A stretch of DNA of 64,000 bases from Alphaproteobacteria bacterium (GCA_964291675.2 OZ219866.1:3008001-3072000), one strand, 5' to 3'. Positions 1,538-40,078 are shown, counted from the stretch's first letter. The notes: a model not told the origin generated them from the sequence alone. Numbers and translations are program-made.

Positions 1538-1562
1538 GTTTCGGTTCCTTGCTTGTCCGTGG

Positions 1563-2537: not shown

Positions 2538-2708
2538 GGTTCCTCCGAAGGGGTTGGATTCGTGGATGGGTGGGCTCGCCACGCGCCCTTGCCGCCACCC
2601 CGGATCGAGTCCGGGGCGACAGGAGAAGCCCGCTTCGGCCGGGCGCCTAGCGAAAATAAGCGGCCTCGAAACGGGCCGCCATCGAAGTCGATTATCGGGC
2701 GTTGCGCC

Positions 2709-3176
2709 TCAGGCGGCGAGCCTGTACCCGGGCGGTCCGCTCCCGTCGATGACGATATCCGGGCGGCTGCCGCCCGGAACGCATCTGGCGGCGATCTGCT
2801 CGATCGAGCCGCGCTCGCCGAGATCCAGCTTCTCGACCGCCAGCAGCCGGACGACGATCTCGGACGCGGCCTGGATCGGCGTTCGGTTCTTCTCCCATCG
2901 GGCAACCGACTGGGCGTCGCGATGGACGTGCCTTGCGAGCTCCGCCTGGGTGAAGCCCATCATCGTCCGCAGGAACCTGAGCTCCTGCCCGGACATCGCC
3001 GATTCGCGCTCCACGATGCCCCGAGCGATGGTCTTGTGCAGCTCGTTGACCGCCGGGATGTACAGCACTTCTTCACCGCTGTCGTCGACCCGCACGCCGA
3101 TTCCCTCGATGAATACGTTGTCCAGTCCGCATTCGGTGTAGCGGTATCTGGTGCGCTCCCCGGAAGCAGCCTTCAT
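2709..3176 (-). CDS. MqsA/YgiT-like HTH antitoxin
   Basis: YRYTECGLDNVFIEG N-terminus plus XRE HTH (ELRFLRTMMGFTQAELARHVHRDAQSVARWE). Confidence 0.75.
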   Translation of the reverse strand: MKAASGERTRYRYTECGLDNVFIEGIGVRVDDSGEEVLYIPAVNELHKTIARGIVERESAMSGQELRFLRTMMGFTQAELARHVHRDAQSVARWEKNRTPIQAASEIVVRLLAVEKLDLGERGSIEQIAARCVPGGSRPDIVIDGSGPPGYRLAA

Positions 3177-3191
3177 GCCTTGCAGCCTTCT

Positions 3192-3539
3192 TCAACCGCG
3201 TTGTATCGGTTCGTCAGCCCACATTGCCGTCACAATCGTCGCTTCCCTCTTCTCTGTCGACGGGACTACGACAACTCTCAACGTGCGTCTCCCGGAGTTC
3301 GGTGTCTTGCACTCCATCTTGTACCTGAAATAGCCCGGCCGGGCCGACGGCTCCCCTTTTTCATAAACAAATCCACGTTTCAGGACATAAAGTACGTCAT
3401 CCAATATCAGGTCACGCTGCTTTATCTGCTCAATCGCATGTTTGCTCATGAAGACTCCGAAATCGTCGCGTAGGGCCATTTCCCTGATCGAGTCCGTGGC
3501 CCGGGCCGCGGATAGCGGTTCTTCGCCGGGCTTCGTCAC
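3192..3539 (-). CDS. DUF4258-like (RelE/MqsR-fold) toxin
   Basis: SKHAIEQIKQRDL..DDV and C-terminal TIVTAM motifs; directly upstream of the HTH gene. Confidence 0.7.
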   Translation of the reverse strand: MTKPGEEPLSAARATDSIREMALRDDFGVFMSKHAIEQIKQRDLILDDVLYVLKRGFVYEKGEPSARPGYFRYKMECKTPNSGRRTLRVVVVPSTEKREATIVTAMWADEPIQRG

Positions 3540-3559
3540 GCCGACACCACTCCGCCCGC

Positions 3560-3578
3560 ACCTATCACGGTGATAGGT
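3560..3578. promoter_or_regulatory. Palindromic operator upstream of the TA operon
   Basis: ACCTATCAC-G-GTGATAGGT, perfect 9-bp arms, 20 bp upstream of the toxin start. Confidence 0.55.
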
Positions 3579-3699
3579 ACAGCGGATCGCGGCGGATCGT
3601 CAAGACCTATCGGCGCGGGCACCGGCGATGTCGAGATCGCTTTCGGCCTCGTCGGTCATGCTTGCTCCGAAGGGGTTGGATTCGTGGATGGGTGGGCTC

Positions 3700-3809
3700 G
3701 TCCTTCGATACGCCCGCCTGCGGCGGTCTACTCAGGATGAGGTGTCTTGTTGGAGGGCGCTCAACCCCGCCCTCATCCTGAGTAGCGGCGAAGCCGCGTA
3801 TCGAAGGAC
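3700..3809. repeat. Inverted pair of REP-like family A elements
   Basis: TCCTTCGATACGCCC...CTACTCAGGATGAGG followed by an inverted copy. Confidence 0.7.
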
Positions 3810-3815
3810 GCACCC

Positions 3816-4229
3816 CTATTTCGTCCTGCCGCCCATCTTCTCGAACGTCCTGAGCCCGCCGAGGCCGAGCAGGCTCAGCAGCACCGTCAGCAGGTGCTCG
3901 AGCTGGAGCGCCGCCGGGACCGGGGTGCCGGGCGCCCAGACCGAGAACCCCCAGACCAGCAGATCGCGCAGGATGAAGTTCCAGGCGAGCGCGGCGCCGC
4001 AGATCCAGCCGATGAAGGGCCGCCAGCCGGCGACGAACACAGAGCGGTGCTGCGCCTCAATGCGGTTGACCTCGATCTGGGCCAGCGCCGGGCGCTGCGC
4101 GAGGCGGGCGAGCAGGGCCTCCTTGCCGAGCCGTTCGTCGTCGCTGGTGAACAGATCGTCGATCACCCGGCCGATCGCCGCGACCGGCTCGGCCGCGCCG
4201 CGGCCGAACAGCATGTCGAGCAGGGGCAT
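3816..4229 (-). CDS. 3TM holin (GTA_holin_3TM/DUF3154-like)
   Basis: IDDLFTSDDER, GWRPFIGWICG and LLGLGGLRTFEK signature motifs. Confidence 0.8.
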   Translation of the reverse strand: MPLLDMLFGRGAAEPVAAIGRVIDDLFTSDDERLGKEALLARLAQRPALAQIEVNRIEAQHRSVFVAGWRPFIGWICGAALAWNFILRDLLVWGFSVWAPGTPVPAALQLEHLLTVLLSLLGLGGLRTFEKMGGRTK

Positions 4230-4242
4230 CAGCCGCGCCCCG

Positions 4243-4435
4243 TCCCTCGATACGGCCCTTCGGGCCTACTCGGGATGAGGGCGGGGTTGGGGCGGCCGGC
4301 ATCCTTTCTCATCCATTCTCTCCTCATCCTTCGGGGGCTACTCAGGATGAGGGTGGGGTTGGGGCGGCCGGCATCCTTTCTCATCCATTCTCTCCTCATC
4401 CTGAGTAGCCCGCCGCAGGCGGGCGTATCGAAGGA
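4243..4435. repeat. REP family A elements with an internal tandem duplication (71-bp period)
   Basis: GGGGTTGGGGCGGCCGGCATCCTTTCTCATCCATTCTCTCCTCATCCT occurs twice (about 4282 and 4353). Confidence 0.7.
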
Positions 4436-4647
4436 CCGACCGCGTCGTTGCCGATCTCGACCATGCCGTTGGCCCGCAGATGCTCGTCCCAGTCGCGGCG
4501 CGAGCGGTAGCGGCGGCCGTCGGCGGGGCTGGCGATGCCGTGCTCGAAGGGGGCGTCGCGGTTGACGAGCTGCGGCCCGGCGGCCGGGCGGGGCGGCGCC
4601 AGCGGGACCCAGCGGGCCTGCGCCTTGCTCCAGGCGTAGCGGGTCAT
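4396..4647 (-). CDS. Small conserved phage protein downstream of the portal
   Basis: MTRYAWSK...SPADGRRYRSRRDWDEHLRANGMVEIGND; ATG overlaps the portal stop; its last codons run into a REP element. Confidence 0.6.
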   Translation of the reverse strand: MTRYAWSKAQARWVPLAPPRPAAGPQLVNRDAPFEHGIASPADGRRYRSRRDWDEHLRANGMVEIGNDAVGPSIRPPAAGYSG

Positions 4648-6425
4648 CGCGGCCTGCCCTCGGCCGGGCCCGGCGGCGGCGCGGCGGCGGCCGCCTCGGC
4701 CTGGCGGATCAGCGCGTCCGAGGTGCGCCCGATCACCTCCTCCAGCCGGCGGCCGGGCTTGAAGCTGCGCGCGGCGGTGCGGAACATTTCGAGGAACATC
4801 GGCGCAGATTGCGGCGCCGCCCCGATCAAGGGCGCGATGCCGGTAAAGAAGCCGGTCGCGGCGGTCAGGAACTCGACCGCGTTGCGCCGCTCGGCCTCGG
4901 CGTCGGGCTGGACCGTCGATTCGGTCTCGATGTCGATGCGGAAGCCGCGCAGCCGCTCGTCGCGCAGCAGCGCAGCGACCGCCGGCGGCACCGGCCGCCC
5001 GGTCATCCGGGCCAGCGTCTCGGGGCGGAAATGCTCGGCGATCACCTCCGCCTTGAGGCGCAGCGCGTCGCGCACGAAGCGCTGCATCGGGCGCTGGCGG
5101 GGCTGCATCCGCATGGTGCCGAAGGAGCCCTTGAGGCGCTGCGCGGTGGCGGTCTCGGAGGCCTGGGTGGAGCCGCGCACGATGTCCGACAGGCCGGTGA
5201 TCTCGAAGATCTCGGCCTTGAGCTGCGCCATGTGGCCGTTGAGCGAGACGATCACCTGGGCGATGCGCTCGATCGGCAGCCACTCGATGGCCGCCGCCAG
5301 CCCGCCCTTGTCGCGGAACTGGTCCCAGTCCTTGACCGGGATCATCTCGTTCTCGCCGGCCTCGGTGAGCAGCCGCTCGATCTCGCCCAGCACCCCGGCA
5401 TAGACGCCGCGCGCCCTGAGCGCGGCGATCAGATGCCGCTTGCGGTCGGCGAGCTCGTCGAGCTCCAGCGCCTGGTCCTGGTAGAGGGTGAATTCCGGGA
5501 TCGGCACCCGCGAGTCCGACGTCCTGACCGCATAGATCGGCTCCGGCACCGGGAAGAAGCCGGCGAGCCCGAGCGGGTCGGGGGTCTCCTCGACGACGCG
5601 GTCGAAGCCGTCGGCGATGACGATGCGCCTGCGCCCCGGCTTGTCCCAGATCTCCCACAGGACGGCGCGCCTCGCGCCTTCCGGCGCGACCTCCGGCGCG
5701 GCGCCCGCGCGGTCGCGCCCGTCATAGGCGCGCACCGCGCCCTCCAGCGGGATGTCGCGGCCGATCGCGCCGAAGCGCTCGACCAGCTCGCCGCGCGCGA
5801 GCGCGTGGCGGAAGGCGATCCAGCCCACCTCGTCCCAGCAGCGCGCGGGCTGCTCGCGGTAGTCCTTCCAGAACACGTGGCGGCAGCGGACCCGCTCGTC
5901 GGCCACCTCCTCGACCCAGGCGTCCTCGCCGTCGAACCCGTCGGGCTCGACCGGCCGGCCGTCGAGCAGGAAGACCGGCGCGCCATCGGGGCCTTCGGCG
6001 CGCTCCAGGGCGCGCCTCGCGATCACCGGCTCGTAGACGATGCGCGCGACGCCGCGCCCGGGCAGCAGCATGTCGTCGCGCACCGCCTCCATCGCCCGGT
6101 CGAAGCCGTCGTCGTCGAGCAGGTAGGAGAGCGCGCGCTCCAGCACCAGCGCGGCCTCGCGCCCGACCGGGTCGTCGTCGAGATAGCGCCGGCGCACGTC
6201 CGGCGCCGGGGTCTGCGAGTAGATCACCGGCTTCAGGATCTCGGTATTGGCCCACAGGATGTTGACCTGGCGGCGGGCGGACTGGCGCTTCTCGGCGCGG
6301 TAGCGCTCGACCACCTTGTCGGCGCGCTGCATCCAGTCGCGCCCGGCCCGCCCCGCCCGGTCGAGCTCGGCCCGCCAGTGGCGCACCGTCCCGTCCGGCC
6401 CGGGAGTTTCGGTCTCGGTCTTCAT
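4644..6425 (-). CDS. Phage portal protein
   Basis: About 593 aa after terL; NILWANTEILKPVIYSQTP, FFPVPEP and EITGLSDIVRG..ETATAQRLK motifs; AAAGGAAAG RBS before ATG 6425. Confidence 0.8.
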   Translation of the reverse strand: MKTETETPGPDGTVRHWRAELDRAGRAGRDWMQRADKVVERYRAEKRQSARRQVNILWANTEILKPVIYSQTPAPDVRRRYLDDDPVGREAALVLERALSYLLDDDGFDRAMEAVRDDMLLPGRGVARIVYEPVIARRALERAEGPDGAPVFLLDGRPVEPDGFDGEDAWVEEVADERVRCRHVFWKDYREQPARCWDEVGWIAFRHALARGELVERFGAIGRDIPLEGAVRAYDGRDRAGAAPEVAPEGARRAVLWEIWDKPGRRRIVIADGFDRVVEETPDPLGLAGFFPVPEPIYAVRTSDSRVPIPEFTLYQDQALELDELADRKRHLIAALRARGVYAGVLGEIERLLTEAGENEMIPVKDWDQFRDKGGLAAAIEWLPIERIAQVIVSLNGHMAQLKAEIFEITGLSDIVRGSTQASETATAQRLKGSFGTMRMQPRQRPMQRFVRDALRLKAEVIAEHFRPETLARMTGRPVPPAVAALLRDERLRGFRIDIETESTVQPDAEAERRNAVEFLTAATGFFTGIAPLIGAAPQSAPMFLEMFRTAARSFKPGRRLEEVIGRTSDALIRQAEAAAAAPPPGPAEGRPR

Positions 6426-6480
6426 GGCTTTCCTTTCGGCTCGCATGGCGGTCCTTCGATACGTGCCCTGCCGCCCCCAC

Positions 6481-6590
6481 CCGTCATGCCCGGACTTGAT
6501 CCGGGCACCCACTGGCGCCGCCGCCTCTCCCTGCAACCCCCTTGCGCGCGGCGGCCGCATGGGTGCCCGGATCAAGTCCGGGCATGACGG
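6481..6590. repeat. Inverted pair of REP-like family B elements (GTCATGCCCGGACTTGATCCGGGCA)
   Basis: The same palindrome occurs at 8471-8760, 14747-14900 and 29988-30480. Confidence 0.75.
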
Positions 6591-6616
6591 AGGGAGCGGG
6601 GCGGCGCGCCCCGCGG

Positions 6617-7933
6617 TCAGATCAGCCCGTGCCCGGCGCGGCGGCGCTCGGCGAGGTGGCGGCGCCATTGGCCCTCGAAGCTGTCCGCGCGCGGCGCCGG
6701 CGGGGCGAAGCGGTCGCCGATCCCCATCGCCAGGTAGCGGAACGCGTCCGCGCCGTGGCTGAAGCGGTCGTGCACCGGCCGGTCGCCGAGCCCGCCGGTG
6801 GCGGGGTCGATTTCCGCCCGGTAGCGGCGCAGGCACTCGATGCCGGCCTCGGCGCGCTCGGCGTCGAACCAGCAGCGCGGCAGGATCGCGCGCACCGCGT
6901 TGATGCCGTCCTCGATGCGGTGGCGCGGCACGATGGCGAACCGGATGCCGAGCCGCCGCGCCTGCTCCTCGCGCGTCCGCCCGGTGCCGAGCTCGCGGGC
7001 CAGCGCGTCGGGCGGCGCGTAGTGGCGGCCATAGACATAGCCGCGCTCGGCGGCGCGTTCCTGCAGCAGCCCGGCATAGTGGTCGAGCCCCTCCCCCTCC
7101 GCCTCGTAGTAGTCGAGCAGGTGGATCTCGGGCCCGGCGAGCTGGGCGAACCAGATCGCCGTCGGGTCGCCGATGCCGAGATCCCAGGCGGTGTCGACCG
7201 GCAGCGCCGGGTCGTGCGGCACCGCGCGGATACGCCCCGAGCGCCGGGCGTCGGCCATCGCCCGGCCGTAATAGGCGCCCTTGACCGCCGCCTCGAAGGA
7301 GCACTCGAACTCCTGGGCGTACTCCTCGCGCGTCATGTCGCGGCGCGCGGCGGCGAGCTCCTGCGCCGGCAGCACGCCACTCGCCGATGCCGGGAACAGC
7401 GCCGCGTACCAGGTCGCATCGGCGCGGGCCGCGCGGTACATGCGCCAGAACGCGTCATGCCCCTTGGGCGTGCCGATGAAGATCGCCCAGCCCTCGCGGT
7501 CGGCGAGCGCCGGGCGGATCACCTCGCCCCACATGTCGGGGTTCATCTGCGCGTACTCGTCGAGCACCGCGCCGTCGAGATAGATGCCGCGCAGCGAATC
7601 CGGGTTGTCGGCGCCGTAGAGCTGGATGCGCGCGCCGTTGGGGAGGTCGACCCGGAGCTCGGTCTCGCTCACCTTGCGGCCCGGCACCGCGGACGTGTAG
7701 TGCTTGAGATAGTCCCACGCGACCCGCTTGGCCTGGCGGTAATAGGGCGCGATATAGGCAAACCGCGGGCGCGGGCGCCGCGCGCGGATGGCGTGGTCGA
7801 TCAGCTCGTTGACGCAGAGCACCGTCTTGCCGAAGCGGCGGTGGCAGACCAGCACGCTGAACCGGGCGAGGCTGCGGTGGATGTCGGCCTGCAGCGGGCG
7901 CGACCGGTAGCCGGTGCTAATTTTCTCGGTCAC
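6617..7933 (-). CDS. terL: Terminase large subunit
   Basis: Walker A HRRFGKT, GADNPDSLRG..LDEYA Walker B, GTPKG motif III, WDLGIGD nuclease motif and SHGADAFRY. Confidence 0.92.
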   Translation of the reverse strand: MTEKISTGYRSRPLQADIHRSLARFSVLVCHRRFGKTVLCVNELIDHAIRARRPRPRFAYIAPYYRQAKRVAWDYLKHYTSAVPGRKVSETELRVDLPNGARIQLYGADNPDSLRGIYLDGAVLDEYAQMNPDMWGEVIRPALADREGWAIFIGTPKGHDAFWRMYRAARADATWYAALFPASASGVLPAQELAAARRDMTREEYAQEFECSFEAAVKGAYYGRAMADARRSGRIRAVPHDPALPVDTAWDLGIGDPTAIWFAQLAGPEIHLLDYYEAEGEGLDHYAGLLQERAAERGYVYGRHYAPPDALARELGTGRTREEQARRLGIRFAIVPRHRIEDGINAVRAILPRCWFDAERAEAGIECLRRYRAEIDPATGGLGDRPVHDRFSHGADAFRYLAMGIGDRFAPPAPRADSFEGQWRRHLAERRRAGHGLI

Positions 7934-8246
7934 GTTCGATCCCCGTATCGACGATCTCGGCCAGCCGGTCGGCGGCGATGCCCCCGTCCCCGCCCTGGCC
8001 CAGGATCAGCCGGCCCAGCAGGCCGGCCATGGTGGCGTTGCGCTCGGCGAGCGCGAATTGCGAGCGCCGGATGCGCACCCGCCCGCACAGCGCGCCGTCG
8101 GCCCAGGCGCGCCGAAGCGCCGGGTCGGCGAGCGCGCGGGCGAACGCATCCGCCGGCACGCCGAGCCAGGCGGCCGCCTCGGCCTCGGTGCAGCCGATCG
8201 CCGCCAGCTCGGCGAGCGCGTCGGCGTCGATGCTCGAACCCGTCAA
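7917..8246 (-). CDS. Putative terminase small subunit
   Basis: TTG start after GAGGA RBS; HTH-like LAAIGCTEAEAAAWLGV and NATMA.LLGR.ILGQ motif; overlaps the terL start. Confidence 0.65.
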   Translation of the reverse strand: MTGSSIDADALAELAAIGCTEAEAAAWLGVPADAFARALADPALRRAWADGALCGRVRIRRSQFALAERNATMAGLLGRLILGQGGDGGIAADRLAEIVDTGIERDREN

Positions 8247-8280
8247 GATCGCGTCCTCGTTCGGTTGTCGGGATGTCGGG

Positions 8281-8428
8281 CCACGAAAAAGGGCGCCGGT
8301 CTCTCCGGCGCCCCATTTCGCGACTGTGGCAAATCTACCCCAAAACGCGTCCCATGTCAAGCGAAAAATACGTTATAGGGAAATTTTTTCGGAACCCCTT
8401 GGAATCCCGGGGGTTTCTTGCCGGTGCC
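8281..8428 (-). promoter_or_regulatory. Promoter+terminator repeat unit, copy 1
   Basis: Minus strand TTGACA (8360-8355), 17 bp, TAGATT (8337-8332), then hairpin GGGCGCCGG-AGAGA-CCGGCGCCC-TTTTT. Confidence 0.75.
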
Positions 8429-8455
8429 AATTCGGGCGGCGGAGCGGGCGGTTGT

Positions 8456-8760
8456 CCCTCGATACGCCCCGTCATGCCCGGACTCGTTGCACCGCTGCCC
8501 GGTTCAGCCTTCGATGCGGGCCGAACCCGGCCCTCTTCGCCCCGCCCCTCGACGCCCGGATCGAGTCCGGACATGACGGGAGGCGGAGTGATGGCGATGG
8601 GGCGGGCCGCGCCCGGCTCTCCCTGCTCCTCCTCCGCCACCACCCCGTCATGGCCGGACTCGATCCGGCCATCCACACGGCCTCTCCGCCCGCATGACGG
8701 TCCGACGGGAGGGTGGCAGCGCTCATGGATGCCCGGATCGAGTCCGGGCATGACGGGGGA
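8456..8760. repeat. Cluster of REP-like family B palindromes
   Basis: Several GTCATG(C/G)CCGGACT(C/T)GATCCGG copies in alternating orientation. Confidence 0.7.
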
Positions 8761-8785
8761 GGAGGCCGGTTGCCCCCCGTCTCCG

Positions 8786-8928
8786 CCACGAAAAAGGGCG
8801 CCGGTCTCTCCGGCGCCCCATTTCGCGACTGTGGCAAATCTACCCCAAAACGCGTCCCGTGTCAAGAAAAAATACGTTAAAGGGAAAATTTTTGCCAAAC
8901 CCCCTGGAATCCCGGGGGTTTCTTGCCG
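8786..8928 (-). promoter_or_regulatory. Promoter+terminator repeat unit, copy 2
   Basis: Near-identical to 8281-8428. Confidence 0.75.
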
Positions 8929-9012
8929 CCTCCGAAGCGCCACCGGACCGACGCCGGAGCAGCGAACGGCGATTACCCGGGAGGCGTCCGGAAGCGGTGG
9001 CGGAACCGTGAT

Positions 9013-9663
9013 CTACGAAAACAGGCGTTCTAGTTCTTCGAGCACCTGCAAGTGTCGTTTCGTCGTCAATGGCGCTGAACAGAAATAGCGTTCAGCCTCC
9101 ACGGACGTCCCCTCGCGACGTTCAATGATGAATTTCGGGATTGCCTCGGATTTTGATGCGAATTCAATTGTGAGCGCGCTGAACGCTGCTGCACTCACGT
9201 CCCGGTGTTCGTTCACGCCGGATAAAATGACATTTGCAATCTTGTCGTACTTGGCGAGCATATTCGCTGCCGGTTTCTCGAATTCGACAACGACCTCGCT
9301 CGAGTAGAGCGACTTCTTATGGATCCGCCTGCATCCGTAATGCTGGACCAGCCAGTCTATCAGGTCCGCGAAAAATGCTTCCGCATGCCCTGTCTCGTAT
9401 GCTCGAACGACTACTCCGTCATTGTGGATAGACAAGCGGTGGATCGTGGCTTCTCCCAACTCTGTCTGGAAGAACCCCAACTCGTACACAAGCCCGTTTC
9501 TTTCCAGTTCGGTGTGGGACGACAGCCTGGGCAAGGTGCCGAAATTGTATCGTTGGCCGATGGCAATGAGAATTTGGCGTTCATTTAGCCCGTCCATGGG
9601 GGTGAACGACTCAAGAGGGAAAAGCGATACCAAGGTTCCGGACGAGAAAGCTATGATTTTCAC
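9013..9663 (-). CDS. Hypothetical protein (third gene of a TA-like triad)
   Basis: 216-aa ORF, visibly lower GC than the flanks; start overlaps the upstream stop. Confidence 0.6.
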   Translation of the reverse strand: MKIIAFSSGTLVSLFPLESFTPMDGLNERQILIAIGQRYNFGTLPRLSSHTELERNGLVYELGFFQTELGEATIHRLSIHNDGVVVRAYETGHAEAFFADLIDWLVQHYGCRRIHKKSLYSSEVVVEFEKPAANMLAKYDKIANVILSGVNEHRDVSAAAFSALTIEFASKSEAIPKFIIERREGTSVEAERYFCSAPLTTKRHLQVLEELERLFS

Positions 9664-10166
9664 GGAGCTGACCTTGCGATACTCGGCAACCTTGCCGCAT
9701 CGGCCTGCGACGGTTTAGGCGGTATTTCCGCCAACGCACTGTTGGGCCGAATCCGCCGATCCCTCACTCCTTCTTCGTGCTTCACCGCTCTTGAGCGCTG
9801 CGCGGGGGCGAGGGATCGGACCAGATCCTCAGATCGGTAATTCCTCGCGGCGCGCTGCAAGTACGGCTCGGATCGAGGCCGCAACTCCTCGCGACAGATA
9901 CCGACCAGCAGCTCGCTGACGGTATCCAGCGTCCAGTTGCCCGGCGATCCGAGCAGCCTGGTGACGCGAGCCGGCTCGAGCCCGAGGCGCCGCGCGAGCT
10001 TTGCCTTGGTCAACCCGTCCCGTTCGGCCGCCTCGTGGAACCGCCGCAGAACGTAGTCGTAGAAGCTGTTCCTCACCCGCTCGTTGAGATAGCCGAGCGC
10101 GTAGTCCGAGAGCGGCTCGTCGCCCGCGATCTCAGATTTCACTGGAATTTGTCGAAACGTAGTCAC
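9660..10166 (-). CDS. XRE-family HTH protein (putative antitoxin)
   Basis: GLTKAKLARRLGLEPARVTRLLGSPGNWTLDTVSELL HTH. Confidence 0.7.
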   Translation of the reverse strand: MTTFRQIPVKSEIAGDEPLSDYALGYLNERVRNSFYDYVLRRFHEAAERDGLTKAKLARRLGLEPARVTRLLGSPGNWTLDTVSELLVGICREELRPRSEPYLQRAARNYRSEDLVRSLAPAQRSRAVKHEEGVRDRRIRPNSALAEIPPKPSQADAARLPSIARSAP

Positions 10167-10674
10167 GGCAGCTTCCTCCTGTCAGCGGCACCGCGCCGGG
10201 AAGGGCGGCATTCCAGCGCTCGTTCGTCTCGATGAGGGCCAGCTCGTACTCCAGCGAATCCCGCTTGCCGAGCGGCCTCCGGCCGCCGAACCGAACCGAC
10301 CTGGGCTCCCACGAGAGGGCAACGAACGTGTCGGCGCAGGGAAACCTTCCAAACACGCGCAAGCCGGGGTTCGGGTCGCGGCTCCTGATTTCCCAGGTTC
10401 CGTCCGCGGGCGGATCCATGAGCGCCAGGAATGCGCTTCCGTGCTCGAACGGCGTCATGCTCAGCGTCACGTGCTCGCCTTTGACAAACGATTCCAGGTC
10501 TCCCTGAAGCCGGCCGACCCGCCGCCCCCAAGCCTCGACCCGCTCGGAAATGTCATCGGCGAGCCGAGGATGGAGAAGCACGGAACGGACCGCCTCGTCA
10601 CTGTCGAACTCCGGCACGAATGCGCGAAGGCGACCCGTTACGATCGCAGCCTCGATACTCTCTGCTATTGACAT
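10132..10674 (-). CDS. Putative RelE/HigB-like toxin
   Basis: WEIRSRDPNPGLRVFGRF resembles the RelE-fold WE.R...R motif; lies upstream of an HTH gene. Confidence 0.5.
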   Translation of the reverse strand: MSIAESIEAAIVTGRLRAFVPEFDSDEAVRSVLLHPRLADDISERVEAWGRRVGRLQGDLESFVKGEHVTLSMTPFEHGSAFLALMDPPADGTWEIRSRDPNPGLRVFGRFPCADTFVALSWEPRSVRFGGRRPLGKRDSLEYELALIETNERWNAALPGAVPLTGGSCRDYVSTNSSEI

Positions 10675-10785
10675 TTAAGTCAACTGGATCGCGCTTGGCC
10701 TGGACCGCCGAACAAGGTAGCACGATGGATGAGCGGACGCCGAAGCCCGCCTCGTCCGCCCGGGCCCCCCCGTTCCCCCGCCAGC

Positions 10786-10929
10786 AAAAAGGGCGCCGGT
10801 CCCTCCGGCGCCCCATTTGTCGACTGTGACAAACCTACCCCAAAACGCGTCCCATGTCAAGCGAAAAATGCGTTAAAGGGAAATTTTTTGCGTAACCCCC
10901 TGGAATTCCGGGGGTTTCTTGCCGGTGCC
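10786..10929 (-). promoter_or_regulatory. Promoter+terminator repeat unit, copy 3
   Basis: TTGACA-17-TAGGTT plus the same hairpin and T run; similarity to the copy 1 region continues to about 10971. Confidence 0.75.
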
Positions 10930-11058
10930 GACTCGGGCTGCGGGGCGGGCGACTGTCCCTCGATACGCCCCCATCGGCATTTCGACCAAGCGGAGCGAGC
11001 CCCGGCACTGACAAATCCGGCGACAGGGCAGGAAGATATCCACAGATCGAACGGCAAG

Positions 11059-11304
11059 CTAGCCAAACAGCTTGATGAGCGTGATTGCGAGCCCGATCCC
11101 GATAACGGAGGCGGCAACGACGCCGCCGAGCACCCATGCCTTGGTCGCCATGGTGTTTTCGATACCCCTGATCCGTTCGTCAATCCGGGCTAGCTGGATT
11201 TCCAATGCCCGCAAGCGAGCGTCGATGCCATCTCCGTTCGACCCGCCGGCATGCACCAAGGATGCCGATGGAGTCGCCGTGGGATGTGGACGGACCGACG
11301 CCAT
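11059..11304 (-). CDS. Small coiled-coil protein with C-terminal TM helix (XhlA-like)
   Basis: IDARLRALEIQLARIDERIRGIE followed by WVLGGVVAASVIGIGLAITLI; start overlaps the upstream stop. Confidence 0.6.
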   Translation of the reverse strand: MASVRPHPTATPSASLVHAGGSNGDGIDARLRALEIQLARIDERIRGIENTMATKAWVLGGVVAASVIGIGLAITLIKLFG

Positions 11305-11570
11305 CACGCCCTGACCTTGGAGAGCCATTCCCAAAGGTCGTTTCGATTGAATCCGAAATAGGCAGAGATCTCGAGAACGATACCGAGACGACTGTCGGCG
11401 TCCGTGGCAACCCCGACGGTCCTGGCCACGTCCGATGTCAGGACGATCCCTTCGGGTGCGACGAATGCCACCCTCTCGTCCAGAATGAAGTGCCTGCCGG
11501 GCCAGTTCTGCTTTATCGCTTCCCATGCGCCGGCGTCCGGCTGATTGAGATAGACGGCGAAGGTACTCAT
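11304..11570 (-). CDS. Hypothetical protein (88 aa, alpha/beta)
   Basis: MSTFAVYLNQ...GFNRNDLWEWL; upstream TTGACC-17-TAGGGT promoter-like sequence. Confidence 0.6.
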   Translation of the reverse strand: MSTFAVYLNQPDAGAWEAIKQNWPGRHFILDERVAFVAPEGIVLTSDVARTVGVATDADSRLGIVLEISAYFGFNRNDLWEWLSKVRA

Positions 11571-11711
11571 CCGGCGACCCTTTCCCGTCGGCGCGTAAAC
11601 CCTAGATAGGGGCCGTTTCGCGGTCAACAACCCTGGCTGGCACCGGAGGTCGAAGCCGCCTCGATGTGTACGGTGCGCGGTGCGCGCCTTCGTCTCCGCT
11701 CCCCGCCCGGC

Positions 11712-11851
11712 AAAAAGGGCGCCGGTCTCTCCGGCGCCCCATTTGTCGACTGTGACAAATCTACCCCAAAACGCGTCCCATGTCAAGCAAAAAATGCGTT
11801 AAAGGGAAATTTTTTGCGGAACCCCCTGGAATCCCGGGCGTTTCTTGCCGG
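11712..11851 (-). promoter_or_regulatory. Promoter+terminator repeat unit, copy 4
   Basis: TTGACA-17-TAGATT plus hairpin and T run. Confidence 0.75.
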
Positions 11852-11924
11852 CTGCGATTGGGGACGTTCCGTCGCTATCCAGGGTGAGGGCTCTATCGAG
11901 CGGCGGCCCGATCGAGGAGGGGGC

Positions 11925-12395
11925 CTACGCGCTCGTCCGGACTTGGGGGCGAGGCGGGTCCGGGAGGGCGATGGATACCGACCCCGTCATCCCGTTGTAG
12001 AGCATCGTCACATGGCGCAGGAGCGCGCGGCCGATGAGTGCGCCGTGCGGCTGCCCGCCCGCATGGAGGTGCACGCCCGCGAACCTGCCGGAGACGGCCA
12101 GGTCCAGGATGGGGATGAATATCTGGGCCAGATGGACATTGACCTCTCCGGCCCCGTGCACCCCGGATACTTGCACACGATCGATGGCCGGCAAGCCGAC
12201 CGCCGCCGCGATGGAAGAGTCTATGCAGCTTTCCCCTGCCCCCGTATCGACCAGAGCACGGTGCTCGGCCTGCGGCAGGTTCGGGTTCCCGCCGGCACGG
12301 TAGTCGGGATCGAAGCCGATCCGCACCCGGAGCGTGGGGCCGAACCTGACCAGGGCATAGGGTTGCCCTGCGAACCCGCACTCAGCTTGCGGCAT
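11925..12395 (-). CDS. Retropepsin-like aspartic protease
   Basis: ALVDTGA catalytic motif, SGVHG flap and ALIGRALL motif. Confidence 0.8.
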   Translation of the reverse strand: MPQAECGFAGQPYALVRFGPTLRVRIGFDPDYRAGGNPNLPQAEHRALVDTGAGESCIDSSIAAAVGLPAIDRVQVSGVHGAGEVNVHLAQIFIPILDLAVSGRFAGVHLHAGGQPHGALIGRALLRHVTMLYNGMTGSVSIALPDPPRPQVRTSA

Positions 12396-12651
12396 CCACC
12401 GCAACCGGGTTGTAGAGCGCCGAGGCGGGTAGCGTGATCGGCGGAGCGCCGATCTCCCTGATCAAGTACGGCCCTGCCCCGAACCGCTCGACCGCCTGCG
12501 CGGCGGCGTCCTCGAACGTGTCGTAGAGGCCCGCCAGCTCCCCGCCATGCACGATCGCCCACTTGCCCAGGTGATCCGTCTCGAGCGCGTTGCGCATGCC
12601 TTCATAGGCAGCGATCTCCCTGGTCAGCGCAGGTGCCTCCGCATCCGCCAT
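12382..12651 (-). CDS. DUF5678-like small protein, partner of the retropepsin
   Basis: HLGKWAIVHGGELAGLYDTFEDA..YLIREIG; overlaps the protease start. Confidence 0.65.
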   Translation of the reverse strand: MADAEAPALTREIAAYEGMRNALETDHLGKWAIVHGGELAGLYDTFEDAAAQAVERFGAGPYLIREIGAPPITLPASALYNPVAVDAAS

Positions 12652-12762
12652 ACGAGCCCTCCTTCCGGGACTGCGGGGAAGACCGCAACCCCTTGGCACG
12701 GGAAAACAATAGGATATCGCGGGGCACAAGCATATCCCGCCGTGAAGCCGACCGGGCACCCG

Positions 12763-12851
12763 CCCACGAAAAAAGGCGCCGGTCCCTCCGGCGCCCCATT
12801 TCTCGACTATGAAAAATATAGTCGAAAACGCGTCCCGTGTCAAGCAAAAAT
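12763..12851 (-). promoter_or_regulatory. Promoter+terminator unit, copy 5 (most diverged, directly after the Q-like gene)
   Basis: TTGACA-CGGGACGCGTTTTCGAC-TATATT, then GGCGCCGG-AGGGA-CCGGCGCC-TTTTTT. Confidence 0.75.
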
Positions 12852-13438
12852 TATCCGAAGTCGTCGTTCTCCTGCTCCTCCTCGTCCGTCCGCTCTGCCG
12901 GGTCCATGCGCACGGCCGAGGAATTGCGGGTCTCGGGGTACGGCGCGTCGACCCAGCCGGCAAGCTCGGCGTAGCGGTGCAGCGCGGCCCGGACGTGCTC
13001 GACCGCCGAGCCGTGGCGCATGCGGTACCAGCCCTCGACCTGGCGCAGCCCGTGATTGTCGATCACCACGTCGAGGATGAGCTGGAGCCGCGTGGTGCGC
13101 ACCGCGCCGGCGGCGACGGTGACCGCCATCTCGCGCGCCCAGGGCCGGTAGCGCAGCCGCCAGGCCAGCTCCTCCGCCGGGGTGAGCCGGTCGATGGGGT
13201 CGGTGAACATGGCGCGGCGCCGGCGCTGGGCGATGGGCGCGGCCGGGCGCGCGGCGGGGAACAACCCGCGGCCGAACGCCTCCCAGACCCGGCGGATCTC
13301 GAGCGCCGCGCGGAGCTGGCCGGCGCAGAGCCGGCCGTCGCGCCCCAGCCGGGCGACGATGTCGCGGCGCAGCTTGCGCAGCGTCTCGGGGGTCGGCCCG
13401 GCATCCCGGGGTGCGGCGGCTTCGGTTTCGGGTTCCAT
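12851..13438 (-). CDS. Putative late-gene regulator/antiterminator (Q-like, C-terminal HTH)
   Basis: C-terminal LILDVVIDNHGLRQVEGWYRMRHGSAVEHVRAALHRYA resembles a sigma-region-4/DUF6456-type HTH; sits immediately upstream of the promoter-terminator unit and the packaging genes. Confidence 0.55.
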   Translation of the reverse strand: MEPETEAAAPRDAGPTPETLRKLRRDIVARLGRDGRLCAGQLRAALEIRRVWEAFGRGLFPAARPAAPIAQRRRRAMFTDPIDRLTPAEELAWRLRYRPWAREMAVTVAAGAVRTTRLQLILDVVIDNHGLRQVEGWYRMRHGSAVEHVRAALHRYAELAGWVDAPYPETRNSSAVRMDPAERTDEEEQENDDFG

Positions 13439-13460
13439 GCTGTGCTCCTTCTGCGAATTG

Positions 13461-13907
13461 TCAGCCGGCGCGGCGGCGGGCCGGCGGGCGGACGCTCGGC
13501 CCGGCCGCGAAGGCGCCCGGCAGCGGGTCGATCCCGGGATAGCGGATGCGGGTGCCGGCCGCCCGGGCGGCGCGGATCAGGTCGGGGATCGACGCCGGCG
13601 CGCCGTCGAGCGCGTAGCCGGCGACGGTCGCGGTGACCCTCCCGCCGAGCGTCTCCAGCGCCCGGCGCAGCGGCGGCGAGGGCAGCGGCGGCGCCTCGCC
13701 CTCGCCGTCGTCCTCCGGCCAGGCCATATCCGGCGCCGGCGCCGGCGGGGCGGCGCAGCGCCATTCGTCCAGCGCCGCTTCGAGCGCCGCGGCGGGGCGC
13801 GCGAAGGTCCATTCGAGGAAGCCGAGCTCGATGCCGCTCGCCGCCAGCAGGAGGAGACGCCGGCGCTCCCCCGGGGAGAACGGAAGGCGCTTGCGATCTT
13901 CTTCCAT
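13461..13907 (-). CDS. Hypothetical phage protein, divergent from the repressor
   Basis: AAGGAG RBS before ATG 13907; occupies the Cro position but no HTH is recognisable. Confidence 0.55.
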   Translation of the reverse strand: MEEDRKRLPFSPGERRRLLLLAASGIELGFLEWTFARPAAALEAALDEWRCAAPPAPAPDMAWPEDDGEGEAPPLPSPPLRRALETLGGRVTATVAGYALDGAPASIPDLIRAARAAGTRIRYPGIDPLPGAFAAGPSVRPPARRRAG

Positions 13908-13940
13908 ATGCGCTATCTCCTTCTCATATCTGACGCCTGT

Positions 13941-13968
13941 AGTTTGCATGAAAAGAAAACTCTGTCAA
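13941..13968 (-). promoter_or_regulatory. Putative pR-like promoter with overlapping operator
   Basis: TTGACA at 13968-13963 followed by the imperfect palindrome AGTTT-N11-AAACT in an AT-rich divergent intergenic region. Confidence 0.45.
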
Positions 13969-14008
13969 GTAGCAATACGCCGAAGGATGCAATTTCTGGG
14001 TGAGGACC

Positions 14009-14641
14009 ATGGCCGAAAGACCTGACGGAATCGCGATCTCCAACCGTATCCGGCAATGGCGCAAGCGGCGCGGGCTGACGCTCCAGGTGCTGGCCGGGCG
14101 GCTCGGCACCTCGGCCGGCCATCTGCACAAATGGGAGACCGGCAAGGTGTCGATCACGCTCGACCGGCTGGGCGAGGTGGCCACCGCGCTGGAGTGCAAC
14201 GTGCTCGACCTGGTCGAGGGGCTGGCCAACGTGCCGGTGGTCGGCCGGGTCGGCGCGGGCTCCGAGGTGCATGCCGTCGACGACCACGCGATGGGCCAGG
14301 GAACCCGCCAAGTGCGCTGCCCCAACGGGCTCGACGCCCAGCAGACGGTGGCGGTCGAGGTGGTCGGCGATTCGATGCTGCCGATCGAGGAGGGCTGGCT
14401 GCTGTTCTACACCCGCGACTACCAGGGGGTGCCGACGGAATGCCTCGGCAAGCTGTGCGTGGTGCAGCTCGCCGAGGACGGGCCGCGCTACGTCAAGCGG
14501 CTCAAGCCGGGGCGGCAGAACGGGCTGTTCAACCTGTACAGCACCAACGCCCGCGAGATGGAGGACATGGCGCTCGCCTGGGCCGCGCCGGTGCTGGACG
14601 CGCGCCCGCCCGTGCCCGGCGAGAGCGGCGCCCGGGGCTGA
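14009..14641 (+). CDS. CI/LexA-like repressor (XRE HTH + S24 autopeptidase)
   Basis: HTH RGLTLQVLAGRLGTSAGHLHKWETG; VGAG cleavage-site motif; GDSM serine and VKRL lysine. Confidence 0.88.
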   Translation: MAERPDGIAISNRIRQWRKRRGLTLQVLAGRLGTSAGHLHKWETGKVSITLDRLGEVATALECNVLDLVEGLANVPVVGRVGAGSEVHAVDDHAMGQGTRQVRCPNGLDAQQTVAVEVVGDSMLPIEEGWLLFYTRDYQGVPTECLGKLCVVQLAEDGPRYVKRLKPGRQNGLFNLYSTNAREMEDMALAWAAPVLDARPPVPGESGARG

Positions 14642-14746
14642 AAGGAATTCCCGGAAAGCGTAAATCGGGCATCGCGGGATTTATTCGATAGGGGAATTCG
14701 CCCCGCCGCGACGGCCGCGCGGGCCGGGCGAATCGGCTCGCCCCCG

Positions 14747-15025
14747 CCCGTCATGCCCGGACTTGATCCGGGCACCAACAGGTGCCGCCGGCACAACGCC
14801 CCGTCGGTTGAGGCGGCGGCACCAGTGGGTGGCCGGATCGAGTCCGGCCATGGGTGCCCGGATCACCCCCGGACTTGATCCGGGGGCCGGGCATGGCGAT
14901 GGGGGAGCCGGGGCGGTGGAACAAGACGACGCGGCGGGCGCGCCGCGATCCCTGCCCCGATCCAGACCGGACAGCAGTCGAACCGGCCCGGCCATGACGT
15001 GGCGGGGCAGGGCGCGTATCGAGAG
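14747..15025. repeat. Cluster of REP-like palindromes
   Basis: Several family B copies and one family A half-site. Confidence 0.7.
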
Positions 15026-17320: not shown

Positions 17321-18559
17321 ATGAACGCGATGACGATGACCGGCGAGGCGCCACCGCGGATCGAACGCCTCAAGGTGCAGAACTTTCGTGCCCTGCGGGA
17401 CGTCGAGCTGACGCGGATCACGCCGCTTACCGTGCTGCTGGGCCCCAACGGCAGCGGCAAGACGACGGTGTTCGACGTCTTCGCCTTTCTCGCCGAATGC
17501 TTCGAGAGCGGGCTGCGCCGAGCTTGGGAAAAGCGCGGCAGGGCGCGCGAGCTGAAATCGCGCGGCGCGGACGGACCTGTCCTGATCGAGATCGCCTATC
17601 GCGAACGGCCGAAGACACCCCTGATCACCTATCGCCTCGAAGTGGACGAGACCAACGGCAGACCCGTCGTGGCCCAGGAATGGCTTCGGTGGAAGCGGGG
17701 GAGCCATGGAGCACCGTTCAGGTTTCTCGACTACGCCGACGGAGTGGGGCGGGTCATCCCGGGTGAACTGCCCGACGCGCGGGATGAGGGGATGGAGGTC
17801 CCCCTGAGTTCACCGGACACGCTCGCGGTCAACGCGCTCGGCCAGCTCGCGGAGAACCCCCGTGTGGTCGCGCTCCGGGACATCATCATGGGATGGCACA
17901 TGTCCTGTCTCTCGTTCGAGGACGCGCGGGGACAGCCGGAGGCGGGGCCACAGGAGCGCCTGAGCAAGACCGGGGACAACCTCGCCAACGTGATCCAGTA
18001 TCTGTCCGAAGAGCATCCCGAACGCTTGGAGTCGATCTTCGGCAGGCTCCGCGAACGGGTCCCCAGGATCGAGAACGTCACCGTCGACCTGACGAGGGAC
18101 GGCAGGCTGTTACTCCGAGTCAAGGACGCCCCGTTCGCCGAGCCCGTCATGGCCCGCTCCGTGTCCGAAGGCACGCTCAAAATGCTCGCCTACCTGACGC
18201 TGCTGCACGACCCGGTTCCGCCGCCCTTCATCGGCATCGAGGAGCCCGAGAACTTCCTGCATCCCCGCGTGCTCCACGGGTTCGCCGAGGAGTGCCGGGA
18301 AGCGGCCCGGGCGACCCAGATCCTCGTCACCACCCATTCGCCGTTCTTCCTCGACACGCTGCGACCGCGCGAAGTGCGCGTGCTTTGGCGCGACGAGTCC
18401 GGCTACACGCGATGTCACGCCTTGGACGGAAACGACAAGGTCAAGGCGTTCATGGAGGCCGGCGCCCAGCTTGGCGATCTCTGGATGGAAGGGCATTTCG
18501 GTGTCGGAGACCCGCTGACCGGGGGCGGAATGCCGGCGCGGGGCAGTGTCGGAACCTGA
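17321..18559 (+). CDS. ABC-type AAA ATPase (AAA_21 family)
   Basis: [12 protein letters not shown] signature, IGIEEPEN and TTHSP. Confidence 0.85.
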
Positions 18560-19178
18560 CATGCCCGCCTGCCATTTCGAGTTCCACGTGGAAGAAGTCT
18601 CCATGGAGGCGTTTCTCAGGACCTGGCTGCCCGGTTTCCTGCCGGCGGGCTGCACCTTCGGAACCTACCCCTACCCGGGCAAGGGCGCGCTGTTGCGCAG
18701 GATCGGGGATCGCCTCAGGGGCTACGCGGCATGGATGCCGGCGGAGTACCGCATCGTGGTGGTCGTGGATCGCGACGCAGACGACTGCATGGAGCTCAAG
18801 TCCACGCTCGATCAATTCTGCGAGAGCGCCGGGCTCCGTTCGAGACGAGCCGCGGGCGGCGCCGGCTGGCAAGTCGTGACGAGGATCGCCATCGAAGAGC
18901 TTGAAGCCTGGTATTTCGGCGACTGGACGGCGGTGCGCGCGGCGTATCCGCGCGTATCGGCGAATATTCCCGGTCGCGCCGCCTACCGGGACCCGGATGC
19001 GATCCGCGGCGGCACTTGGGAGGCGTTCGAACGAGTCCTGCGGAAGCACGGCTATTTCAGGCAGGGATTGGCCAAGGTACAGGCCGCCACCGACATCGGT
19101 CGAAATATCGACCCCGCGCGCAACCGGTCCCGCAGCTTCGCGGTATTCCGCGATGCGATCGCCGAGGCCGCCGCGTAA
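18546..19178 (+). CDS. DUF4276-family (TOPRIM-like) protein
   Basis: [30 protein letters not shown] and NRSRSF motifs; coupled to the ATPase (start may be 18561). Confidence 0.8.
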
Positions 19179-39040: not shown

Positions 39041-40078
39041 GTTGTGCCCCCATCATCGTCGACGGCGGAGACGTTGCCCTGTTGACGTTCGGAGCTGTCA
39101 GCAGTGCCCCACCGCCCTCTCAGCAGCTCCGCCATTCGGAACGTGGTGCGATCAATTGCAGGTTTTGGAAGGAAGTGGTCTACCAAACTCTCTAGGTCAC
39201 CTAGATGGTCCCCTAGAAGAAGAGAAATTTGAGCATGCCTCCCCAATCTCTCGTAAGTCCGCATTATCCTTCCTAGAGGATCACTGAAAGCAATGATTAC
39301 CAGATGTGTCGAGGGTATTGTCAACATATCCTCAATCACCCGATTTATATGCTCATCTCCAAAACTATAGCCGTAGCAGAAAACCGTGCTGTTCGGGCGG
39401 CAAATGGATGCTGCAAAGTCACGGAACAACTCTACGTAGGGATATGCTGCTGTTTCTCGGTCCTTTGCAGCATTGGGATAGATCATGAACTGGCGCGCAT
39501 CCACTCCATATCTTGTGTACATAGACAAAAAGGGAGCCGTACTCTTAGCACCGAATGGCAATCCAATTCGGCGAATTGCGTCACCGAAATCCAGCCAGTC
39601 CACCGATCCATGTAGTTTAGTGAATCTGGCTACACCCTCCAGGTATCGGGGCTCGCCTCTGATGCCAGGTGGGTTGTAGTGTAAATCTACATCCAGGCGC
39701 GATGCGCGAAATACGGGTGCAAGCGTTCCCACAAATCGGTCAATCAGTCTAAGTCCGGCAACATCCGCTCCTGCCTCAAGGTATCGATCATAGTTTGTCG
39801 TGAATATATTCAATCTTTCCCGTGTCCCCGAGCGACTGGCAAAACTCATCAAGAAGCTCACAAGATAATTGAATGCAAGATCACGTTTCTCCAATGCACA
39901 TCCAATTAAGTTATTCTCTCCCTCTAATATGGAGGCAGTAAAGGTCTGAAGCAAATTAGACAAATCCTTGTTCAAATTGGCTAGGGTCTCTTGTTCCGAA
40001 GATTCTTCTGTACCGCTTGACGAAAGTATCTCCAAGCCACGGATAAGTTCATTTGCCACGCGGATTTGATCTTCTATG

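Follow-up and report, generated by a model that had tools for sequence, protein, structure and literature searches.

A repeated promoter-terminator unit paired with a putative late-gene regulator in an alphaproteobacterial gene transfer agent-like cluster

Five copies of a short repeat, each resembling a promoter that fires straight into a terminator, are placed after a small regulator gene and ahead of the packaging genes of a phage-like cluster in a 64,000-nucleotide (nt) stretch of DNA from an Alphaproteobacteria bacterium (GCA_964291675.2, OZ219866.1:3008001-3072000; hereafter the window, with positions counted from its first letter and its genome denoted G000). Unrelated genes, hereafter cargo, occupy the intervals between the copies. 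This arrangement raises the question of what such a unit does in front of late genes, and what would allow RNA polymerase to pass its terminator. A preliminary description had likened the units to the late promoter and terminator of lambdoid phages, read through with the help of a Q-like antiterminator. We find that the late promoter-terminator reading appears functionally largely right, and we consider it reasonably probable that each unit is a late-gene switch, operated most likely by the product of the upstream 195-amino-acid (aa) open reading frame (ORF), here called p195, through antitermination.

The unit and its pairing with the p195 gene

A repeat search recovered the copies as one five-copy direct-repeat family on the minus strand, with 60-100% identity to the reference copy, and alignment of all five showed TTGACA, GGGACGCGTTTT, the leader and the hairpin GGGGCGCCGG/CCGGCGCC with its T run to be unchanged, confirming the array that had been described. 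Each unit consists of an A/T-rich tract 5' of TTGACA, a 17-bp spacer (TGGGACGCGTTTTGGGG) between TTGACA and the -10 box, a -10 box that reads TAGATT, TAGGTT or TATATT, a leader (TGyCACAGTCG.GAAAT), a 10-bp GC hairpin (GGGGCGCCGG-loop-CCGGCGCC) and a T run; the predicted terminated RNA is ~40-45 nt long. Units 1 to 4 are of an extended form that has a further ~70 nt in common upstream, with a second small hairpin. Unit 1 (8270-8437; -35 at 8360-8355, -10 at 8337-8332, hairpin at 8314-8290) lies directly upstream of TerS, and is joined by unit 2 (8775-8942; -35 at 8865-8860, -10 at 8842-8837, hairpin at 8819-8795), unit 3 (10770-10937; -35 at 10860-10855, -10 TAGGTT at 10837-10832, hairpin at 10814-10790) and unit 4 (11696-11863; -35 at 11786-11781, -10 at 11763-11758, with the upstream hairpin). 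Unit 5 (12767-12850, repeat copy 12753-12920; -35 at 12843-12838, -10 at 12820-12815, hairpin at 12797-12773, T run) begins 8 nt beyond the p195 stop codon and has the core only, because its upstream stretch is the 3' end of the p195 ORF. The small upstream hairpin of the extended units (plus-strand positions 8396-8413, 8901-8918, 10897-10914 and 11825-11838, with TTTCTT following on that strand) is missing from unit 5 and from most copies dispersed elsewhere, and may block antisense transcription from entering the unit.

Both halves of the unit stand out from the composition of the region. A consensus scan of 7500-14800 found six promoter-like sites against 1.1 +/- 1.0 in shuffled sequences, four of them in units (unit 3, with its TAGGTT box, was missed), and 12 terminator-like sites against 5.5 +/- 2.6, again with four in units. 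The unit hairpin folds with -22 to -25 kcal/mol, a value that 0 of 200 shuffles equalled. When 69 units from five genomes were aligned, the GGGA of the spacer was invariant, TTGAC, the -10 box and the stem were at least 90% conserved, and the loop and flanks were unconstrained. No Rfam 15 covariance model matched either strand of 7500-14500 at E <= 1. The unit is what it had been said to be in its parts and position, a near-consensus sigma-70-type promoter with a strong intrinsic terminator right behind it, placed after a small regulator gene and before TerS and TerL.

The pairing of this unit with the regulator gene is retained in distant relatives. With a strict script, a promoter-terminator was found within 1 kb past the stop codon at 9 of 19 loci with a p195 homologue, eight of the nine with GGGAC; a unit was recognised by eye at five further loci, at one of them without a T run, and the remaining five, which lack a unit, include insertion sequence (IS)/transposase insertions and a relocated cluster in the genome G003. 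The pairing reaches relatives of p195 at 55%, 47%, 39% and 32% identity, including other genera and IMG/VR viral contigs. At loci L103 and L104 (55%), TTGAC-N2-GGGACAGTTT...TAAAAA lies past the stop codon and is followed by a leader and hairpin, with a T run in L104, while L106 (47%) has a TTGACA promoter, a related spacer and a terminator, and the IMG/VR viral contigs L147 (39%) and L148/L149 (32%) have TTGACG and a -10 box, separated by a GGGGAC or GGGACGCG spacer and followed by a hairpin. The late modules behind these units are mutually non-homologous, with a protease, capsid protein and adaptor in L103 and an HK97-type module in L106, and the 43-kb viral contig L149 has the order primase-helicase, small ORFs, p195 homologue, unit, TerS, TerL and portal. 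Since the pairing is kept down to 32% identity in front of unrelated late modules, the reading of a late promoter-terminator that would be read through by an upstream regulator is well supported by these comparisons. Outgroup genomes carry the motif just once or twice, and genome-wide spread of the unit is therefore a feature of this genus.

p195 (12851-13438, minus strand), a putative GafZ-like late regulator or antiterminator, has no Pfam, PHROG, NCBIfam or PADLOC family. It has no Pfam match at E <= 0.01, and so matches no Q family either; in place of the Q-like label of the preliminary description, it is read here as a protein that resembles sigma region 4 and, remotely, the DUF6456/GafZ type. 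In an AlphaFold2 (AF2) model (predicted local distance difference test, pLDDT, 73.5), residues 85-162 match sigma region 4, with Z 5.0-6.8 and, in the best structural rows, a root-mean-square deviation (rmsd) of 1.7-3.4; sigma-factor domain-4 structures make up most of the 23 rows at Z >= 5. As Z scores these are middling, and a Foldseek search of p195 against the PDB gave no match at E <= 0.001. The Q21 complex chain 6jnx_P was matched weakly (Z 5.2, rmsd 7.0, 109 residues), below the sigma-4 rows.

DUF6456 first surfaced as a lead for p195 from a protein atlas. Two alignments of the p195 family, a close set of 47 members (A2) and a set of 61 diverse representatives (A6), were compared by hhalign with a reference set of 21 DUF6456 domains, C-terminal in their ORFs, from 38 of 201 genomes of the class. 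A6 matched the reference set with a probability of 93.9% (E 1.6e-7, 117 columns, template 8-133 of 135) and A2 with 81% (E 1.2e-5). PF20057 was matched directly by one of the 61 A6 members (E 2.6e-4) and by one of the 47 A2 members (E 0.072), and by none of the 12 genomes of the genus, with a positive Caulobacter control. Judged from these profiles and the model, p195 is most likely a remote relative of DUF6456, the GafA C-terminal/GafZ domain, with a sigma-region-4-like helix-turn-helix (HTH). Cluster representatives of this large family number 1075 at E <= 0.001, and p195 is present as a single copy in 10 of the 11 other genus genomes at 71-83% identity; a tblastn search with p195 and the L149 homologue as queries found nothing in 50,697 deposited phage genomes.

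p195 shares an operon with p162 (13461-13907, minus strand), the first gene, whose start was set at the second Met because relatives have stop codons upstream of it, giving a true length of ~148 aa. Its AF2 model (pLDDT 69) has an N-terminal three-helix HTH similar to Myb, the GcrA DNA-binding domain and homeodomains at Z ~6, a generic fold. Two of 220 family proteins, P0039 and P0045 (298-325 aa), are putative p162-p195 fusions, as judged from gene calls that might span a frameshift, and the predicted complex of p195 and p162 scored 0.00, 0.50 and 0.00 in three runs. Divergent from this operon lies the gene for a CI/LexA-like repressor (14000-14641, plus strand; Pfam HTH_3 E 4.8e-10, Peptidase_S24 E 3e-7; a transcriptional repressor by PHROG). 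Of the proteins encoded at the locus it is the most conserved, with 85-95% identity among genomes of the genus. Between CI and p162 lies a separate TTGACA promoter, without the GGGAC motif.

Copy number, cargo and dispersal

Read along the minus strand, the locus in G000 runs p162, p195, unit 5, cargo A, unit 4, cargo B, unit 3, cargo C, unit 2, REPs, unit 1 and TerS, so that the five units between p195 and TerS separate three cargo sets and one interval of repetitive extragenic palindromic (REP) repeats. Cargo A (11925-12654, minus strand) encodes a 90-aa protein (12382-12654) and a 159-aa retropepsin-like protein (11925-12404; Asp_protease_2, E 2e-5). Cargo B (11059-11570, minus strand) encodes an 88-aa protein (11304-11570) and an 80-aa protein with a C-terminal transmembrane helix (11059-11301), neither with a Pfam, PHROG or NCBIfam match, and cargo C (9013-10674, minus strand) encodes proteins of 180, 168 and 216 aa. 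Among the labels first proposed for these proteins, retropepsin-like holds and a weak HTH is found in the 168-aa protein, whereas DUF5678-like and RelE-like find no match in Pfam, NCBIfam or PADLOC. The interval between units 2 and 1 (8438-8774) contains REP-type repeats alone, as had been noticed, with up to ~220 copies by blastn against the genome.

Comparison between species bears out the expectation that copy number and cargo vary at this locus. Two units are present in each of five genomes, enclosing the 180/168/216-aa trio in G001, the 90-aa/retropepsin pair together with ~9 kb of IS elements in G004, REP-like sequence in G005 and G008, and a small antitoxin-like ORF in G006; in all five, a unit lies 60-150 nt ahead of TerS. 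The trio of cargo C follows the first unit in G001 and is also found in G010, split by an IS21-like element, and cargo B is present in G000 only among the loci compared. Units are more alike within one array than to the units of other species, which suggests gene conversion or recent duplication. Between species, the cargo proteins have diverged about as far as the core proteins, and no paralogues of them occur elsewhere in G000. Differential loss from an ancestral multi-cassette array would fit these data equally well as repeated gain, and the earlier proposal that the promoter was re-duplicated with each cargo acquisition is not established. Recombination between units probably gave rise to the differences in cargo between species.

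A gene for an MqsA-family antitoxin-like HTH protein (2709-3176, minus strand; TIGR03830, E 3e-11), between the holin gene and that of a 339-aa protein, is present in G000, G006 and G008 and was not detected in G001 and G005; cargo therefore varies inside the late operon too. A joint of 8299 to 12795, connecting unit 1 with unit 5, occurs in one contig of the metatranscriptome run X1 and in two of the probable source DNA run X2. It was considered as a deletion variant and taken instead as a repeat-induced assembly path, with just 21 letters on one side.

The unit extends far beyond the cluster. A blastn search with one unit found 21 places in G000, five in the array and 16 elsewhere, and a motif pattern gave 21 matches in the genome against none in the reversed genome, comprising the five of the array, 15 other units and one likely chance match; 15 of the 21 motif matches have a terminator by a strict rule. 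The unit core was found in all 11 other genomes of the genus, with 2 to at least 22 matches each, in one of eight other genomes of the family (weakly), and in none of 21 genomes from other families of the order. Scatter through the genome as a repeat unrelated to the cluster had been named as an outcome that would speak against the late-promoter reading. The unit is indeed scattered, genome- and genus-wide, which agrees in part with that outcome, although the scatter is tied to the same regulator family.

For 57 dispersed units, the next ORF, called by a heuristic based on G+C content at third codon positions (GC3), is co-oriented in 37 cases and convergent in 20. The PDC-S11 family (PADLOC, E 2.4e-60; an N-terminal domain plus HTH_3) follows 16 of the 57, and in G000 a unit, truncated in one case, precedes each of the six PDC-S11 defence-candidate loci by 111-172 nt. 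Other genes behind dispersed units encode UbiD, a Rieske oxygenase, a CO-dehydrogenase flavoprotein, a CysN-like GTPase and an Amidase_2 protein. Several dispersed sites, such as those before Amidase_2, UbiD and PDC-S11 genes, are orthologous between species, with intact copies. A 215-nt indel containing a unit distinguishes G010 (L062, filled) from G000 (C2:892451-892506, empty) at an orthologous intergenic site. This one clean filled/empty pair, a small sample, has neither terminal inverted repeats nor a target-site duplication and so lacks the marks of MITEs (miniature inverted-repeat transposable elements) or other transposon-derived repeats; a second pair (L080) is larger and equivocal. 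The unit at C2:3117765 in G000 sits at a synteny break. The indel in L062 also holds, at ~3040-3130, a perfect 16-bp palindrome (TGTTTCACGTGAAACA) and a second promoter-like stretch.

Proposed mechanism and competing explanations

How might such a unit work as a late-gene switch? Its promoter, in which an A/T tract accompanies consensus -35 and -10 boxes, should need no activator, and since a strong terminator follows at once, the controllable step would be read-through. Each unit would be a constitutive-looking sigma-70-type promoter firing into a terminator ~40 nt on, and would yield a short RNA unless the polymerase is modified. The divergent CI/LexA-like repressor would keep p162 and p195 off, p195 being made once this S24-type repressor is inactivated. 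p195 would then probably bind the invariant GGGAC(GCG) element of the spacer, join RNA polymerase at the promoter and render it terminator-resistant, allowing expression of the cargo, TerS, TerL, portal and capsid genes. Each extra unit would reload polymerase and, in the absence of p195, would stop read-in. The unit has multiplied in this genus, with two to five copies bracketing cargo in the late leader and ten to more than twenty elsewhere in the chromosome.

Several points weigh against this mechanism. Its support is comparative throughout, and the sole RNA run consists of low-depth contigs. Among the 69 aligned units the stem sequence is conserved and hardly any compensatory changes occur, which leaves the RNA structure unproven by covariation. 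The spacer motif is no palindrome, unlike the GafZ-binding element (ZBE) of Caulobacter, ACGCGT alone being palindromic; no sigma-dependent pause element was recognised in the unit; and the hairpin begins ~12 nt past the predicted start, so that the room for loading is small compared with that in lambda. p195 itself matches neither PF20057 nor any other family by HMMER, even at E <= 10, and an hhalign probability of 94% falls short of proof. As 20 of the 57 dispersed units face a convergent gene, these have nothing to read into. Finally, units persist in G009 (270 contigs), where p195 and TerL were not found with the queries used.

A different use of the same parts would make the units multicopy genes for a trans-acting small RNA (sRNA) of ~40-55 nt, with a 5' seed and the terminator hairpin, their position after p195 being incidental or a matter of co-regulation. 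The units are self-contained transcription units, their leader (CACAGTCG.GAA.T) is conserved in the genus and partly beyond it, convergent genes are faced by the 20 dispersed copies just mentioned, and units remain in G009 and G010, in which TerL was not found with the query used. We nevertheless regard an sRNA as unlikely, since the promoter spacer is better conserved than the transcribed part, some copies are promoter-only, the unpaired 5' part is just ~12 nt long, the Rfam search returned nothing at E <= 1, and in outgroups the one or two copies are tied to the p195 gene and late genes. That last association, which extends to phage contigs at 32% identity, also argues against a selfish or neutral mobile promoter repeat, MITE- or REP-like and self-insulated, that landed in the late leader by chance and has no dedicated regulator. 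Proliferation specific to the genus (11 of 11 genomes, against one of eight in the family and 0 of 21 in other families), the 215-nt indel and the unrelated genes downstream (UbiD, Rieske oxygenase, CO-dehydrogenase flavoprotein and Amidase_2) are what such a repeat would produce, and promoter reuse has already been described (PMC3575422). On the other side, the clean filled/empty pair shows no terminal inverted repeats or target duplication, copies at orthologous sites are intact in several species, and promoter function alone leaves the invariant GGGAC unexplained; we therefore judge chance mobility to be about as improbable as the sRNA.

The invariant spacer could instead be a repressor operator, bound by the CI-like protein or by an autoregulating PDC-S11 HTH, with control by promoter occlusion and a terminator that merely insulates. 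The interval between -35 and -10 is a classic repressor site, CI is the most conserved protein of the locus, and all six PDC-S11-family loci, with their HTH_3, lie behind a unit. Yet the motif has no dyad, the CI/p162 intergenic promoter lacks GGGAC, and an operator leaves unexplained why a strong terminator constantly follows within ~40 nt, phage contigs included; this account seems to us slightly less probable still. Readings of the spacer as a LexA, CtrA or extracytoplasmic function (ECF)-type site were rejected, as there is no matching dyad or spacing and the -35 and -10 boxes are of the sigma-70 type. The suggestion that the units are packaging-initiation sites was dropped because copies occur chromosome-wide and in genomes where TerL was not found.

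Should the p195-operated late-gene switch be right, the dispersed copies could have a role of their own. We entertain, as a rather doubtful extension, the idea that the unit is a portable switch for one phage late-regulator family, to which the host has wired PDC-S11, Amidase_2 lysin-like and metabolic genes as a defence trigger. If so, induction of the phage-derived element would switch on a defence or lysis regulon through read-through of the dispersed terminators, and an infecting phage with a GGGAC-recognising protein of the p195 type would trigger the same regulon, so that defence would sense a late-gene antiterminator; units facing convergent genes would give antisense transcripts.

The cluster and comparison with known systems

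The late and structural genes behind the array span 572-8252 on the minus strand and encode, by Pfam/PHROGs, a TerS-like protein (7917-8252), TerL (6617-7933), portal (4644-6602), a GTA_holin_3TM holin (3816-4229) and an SU10-type major capsid protein (572-1819), in addition to the 339-aa protein (1563-2582); tail and virion genes extend ~6 kb past the left edge of the window. Over the ~21 kb that start with the CI-like gene and end with the last virion gene, the content is restricted to regulators, cargo, TerS/TerL, portal, holin, capsid and tail genes, with no integrase or replication gene among the ORFs scanned. In 7 of 7 genus loci for which flanks are available, CI adjoins the host genes for an amidase and an ABC permease, and in one other genus it adjoins the amidase gene. 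CI, p162 and p195 all occur, in the same order, in 7 of 7 relatives, and TerS, TerL, portal and holin come after them in five. A fixed site and collinearity across species therefore give the pattern of a domesticated cluster like a gene transfer agent (GTA), not that of a recently integrated prophage, and the lambdoid setting of the preliminary description does not apply to a cluster that is small, syntenic, vertically inherited and devoid of integrase and replication genes. Structural and lysis genes without integrase or replication genes, inherited vertically at a fixed site, are features of a GTA, and the element is a small, vertically inherited GTA-like phage remnant.

In G003, the regulators are found at the old site on contig C1, TerL is on another contig (C2:364846-365994), and a unit lies at C2:366535-366616, ~540 bp upstream of the TerL 5' end, which is, to judge from these positions, a natural trans arrangement of the putative regulator and its target. 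In G010, TerL was not found with the query used, and the IS21-like element interrupts the cargo trio.

The far end of the cluster is flanked by a toxin-antitoxin pair and a transposase. In G000 a small pair, VapC-like by eye, and a transposase (PHROG 2199, E 2e-62) lie at C2:2998789-3001345 (L043 789-3345), left of the window, and the same transposase type occurs near a dispersed unit at C1:543708. On the other side, a 412-aa AAA_21 ATPase and a 210-aa DUF4276 protein are encoded at 17321-19178 between ABC permease and ABC ATPase genes that adjoin each other in relatives; the two seem to be a defence-type gene pair inserted specifically in this genome. Two stretches of the window, 37000-40000 and 51000-54000, have a G+C content of 0.47-0.57 against ~0.70 and are probably foreign islands.

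What appears to be new is a fused promoter-terminator unit that is repeated around cassettes, has spread in one genus and is associated with every PDC-S11 locus of the genome; our literature search found no description of repeated late promoter-terminator arrays, though one could still be in print. The unit and p195 offer a testable cis/trans pair for a large unannotated family found where early genes give way to late ones in alphaproteobacterial phages and phage-derived clusters, and would link this family to the recently discovered GafZ-type antitermination. A self-insulated unit would show how new genes can be joined to one regulator by copying ~80 bp, and how a late leader can gain or lose accessory cassettes with no integrase involved. 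Were the dispersed copies to respond to p195, they would represent natural growth of a regulon by a mobile switch, candidate anti-phage genes included.

Among known arrangements, a phage moron sits between its own promoter and terminator, and morons are accessory insertions among essential phage genes. As in morons and integron arrays, the cassettes here vary between strains; unlike in a moron, the terminator precedes the cargo. No integrase was found among the locus ORFs scanned and the repeats are not attC-like, and any shuffling of cassettes would therefore proceed via homologous recombination between units.

In phage lambda, the Q gene lies directly upstream of the constitutive late promoter pR', which has a nearby terminator, tR', and a Q-binding element (QBE) in its spacer. 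The same order of regulator, late promoter-terminator and spacer element is seen here, and the p195 homologue of L149, between early/replication and packaging genes, occupies the place of Q in lambdoid phages. The lambda transcript is 194 nt long, against ~40 nt predicted here, and here there are multiple units per locus. Cargo in the late leader likewise has a parallel in Stx phages, where it lies between pR' and the lysis genes (cf. PMC6266700). BrrG of the Bartonella GTA is described as an antiterminator that is Q21-like by structure (bioRxiv 10.1101/2024.11.20.624540). Its domesticated element has, like the one here, a strong TTGACA-N17 sigma-70 promoter, constitutive by itself, and an attenuating leader, and BrrG acts processively, binding at the promoter, as is proposed for p195 (bioRxiv 10.1101/2024.11.20.624540); unlike here, the leader is long and there is a single site. 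Putative mobile promoters (PMC3575422) also place near-identical promoter segments before unrelated genes, within and between related genomes. The piece reused here differs from those in having its own terminator, a conserved non-promoter motif and a tie to one regulator family.

The closest likeness is to the Gaf systems, GafYZ/PgtaT/terGTA of Caulobacter crescentus and GafA of Rhodobacter capsulatus (PMC11150451, PMC9638019), which also belong to small alphaproteobacterial phage-like clusters without replication genes. GafA homologues are annotated as DUF6456, and the C-terminal DNA-binding domain of GafA is sigma-like and binds a -10/-35 fragment (PMC9638019). GafZ, the counterpart of this domain with a sigma-like HTH, is an antiterminator that binds and requires an element between -10 and -35, and lets RNA polymerase bypass the terminator of three 150-bp direct repeats (PMC11150451). 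A sigma-like HTH regulator, an element between -35 and -10, terminators to be read through and ~150-bp leader repeats are common to those systems and the locus studied here, and GafA, a fusion of GafY-like and GafZ-like parts, finds a parallel in the putative p162-p195 fusions. There are also differences. PgtaT has a degenerate -35 and needs GafY and IHF, whereas the unit has a consensus -35; terGTA follows the first gene, whereas the terminator here lies ~40 nt past the start site; and the structural module here is podovirus-like, with its SU10-type capsid protein, not RcGTA-like. In contrast to the Gaf systems, promoter and terminator form one repeated unit here, dispersed through the genome and carrying a non-palindromic motif.

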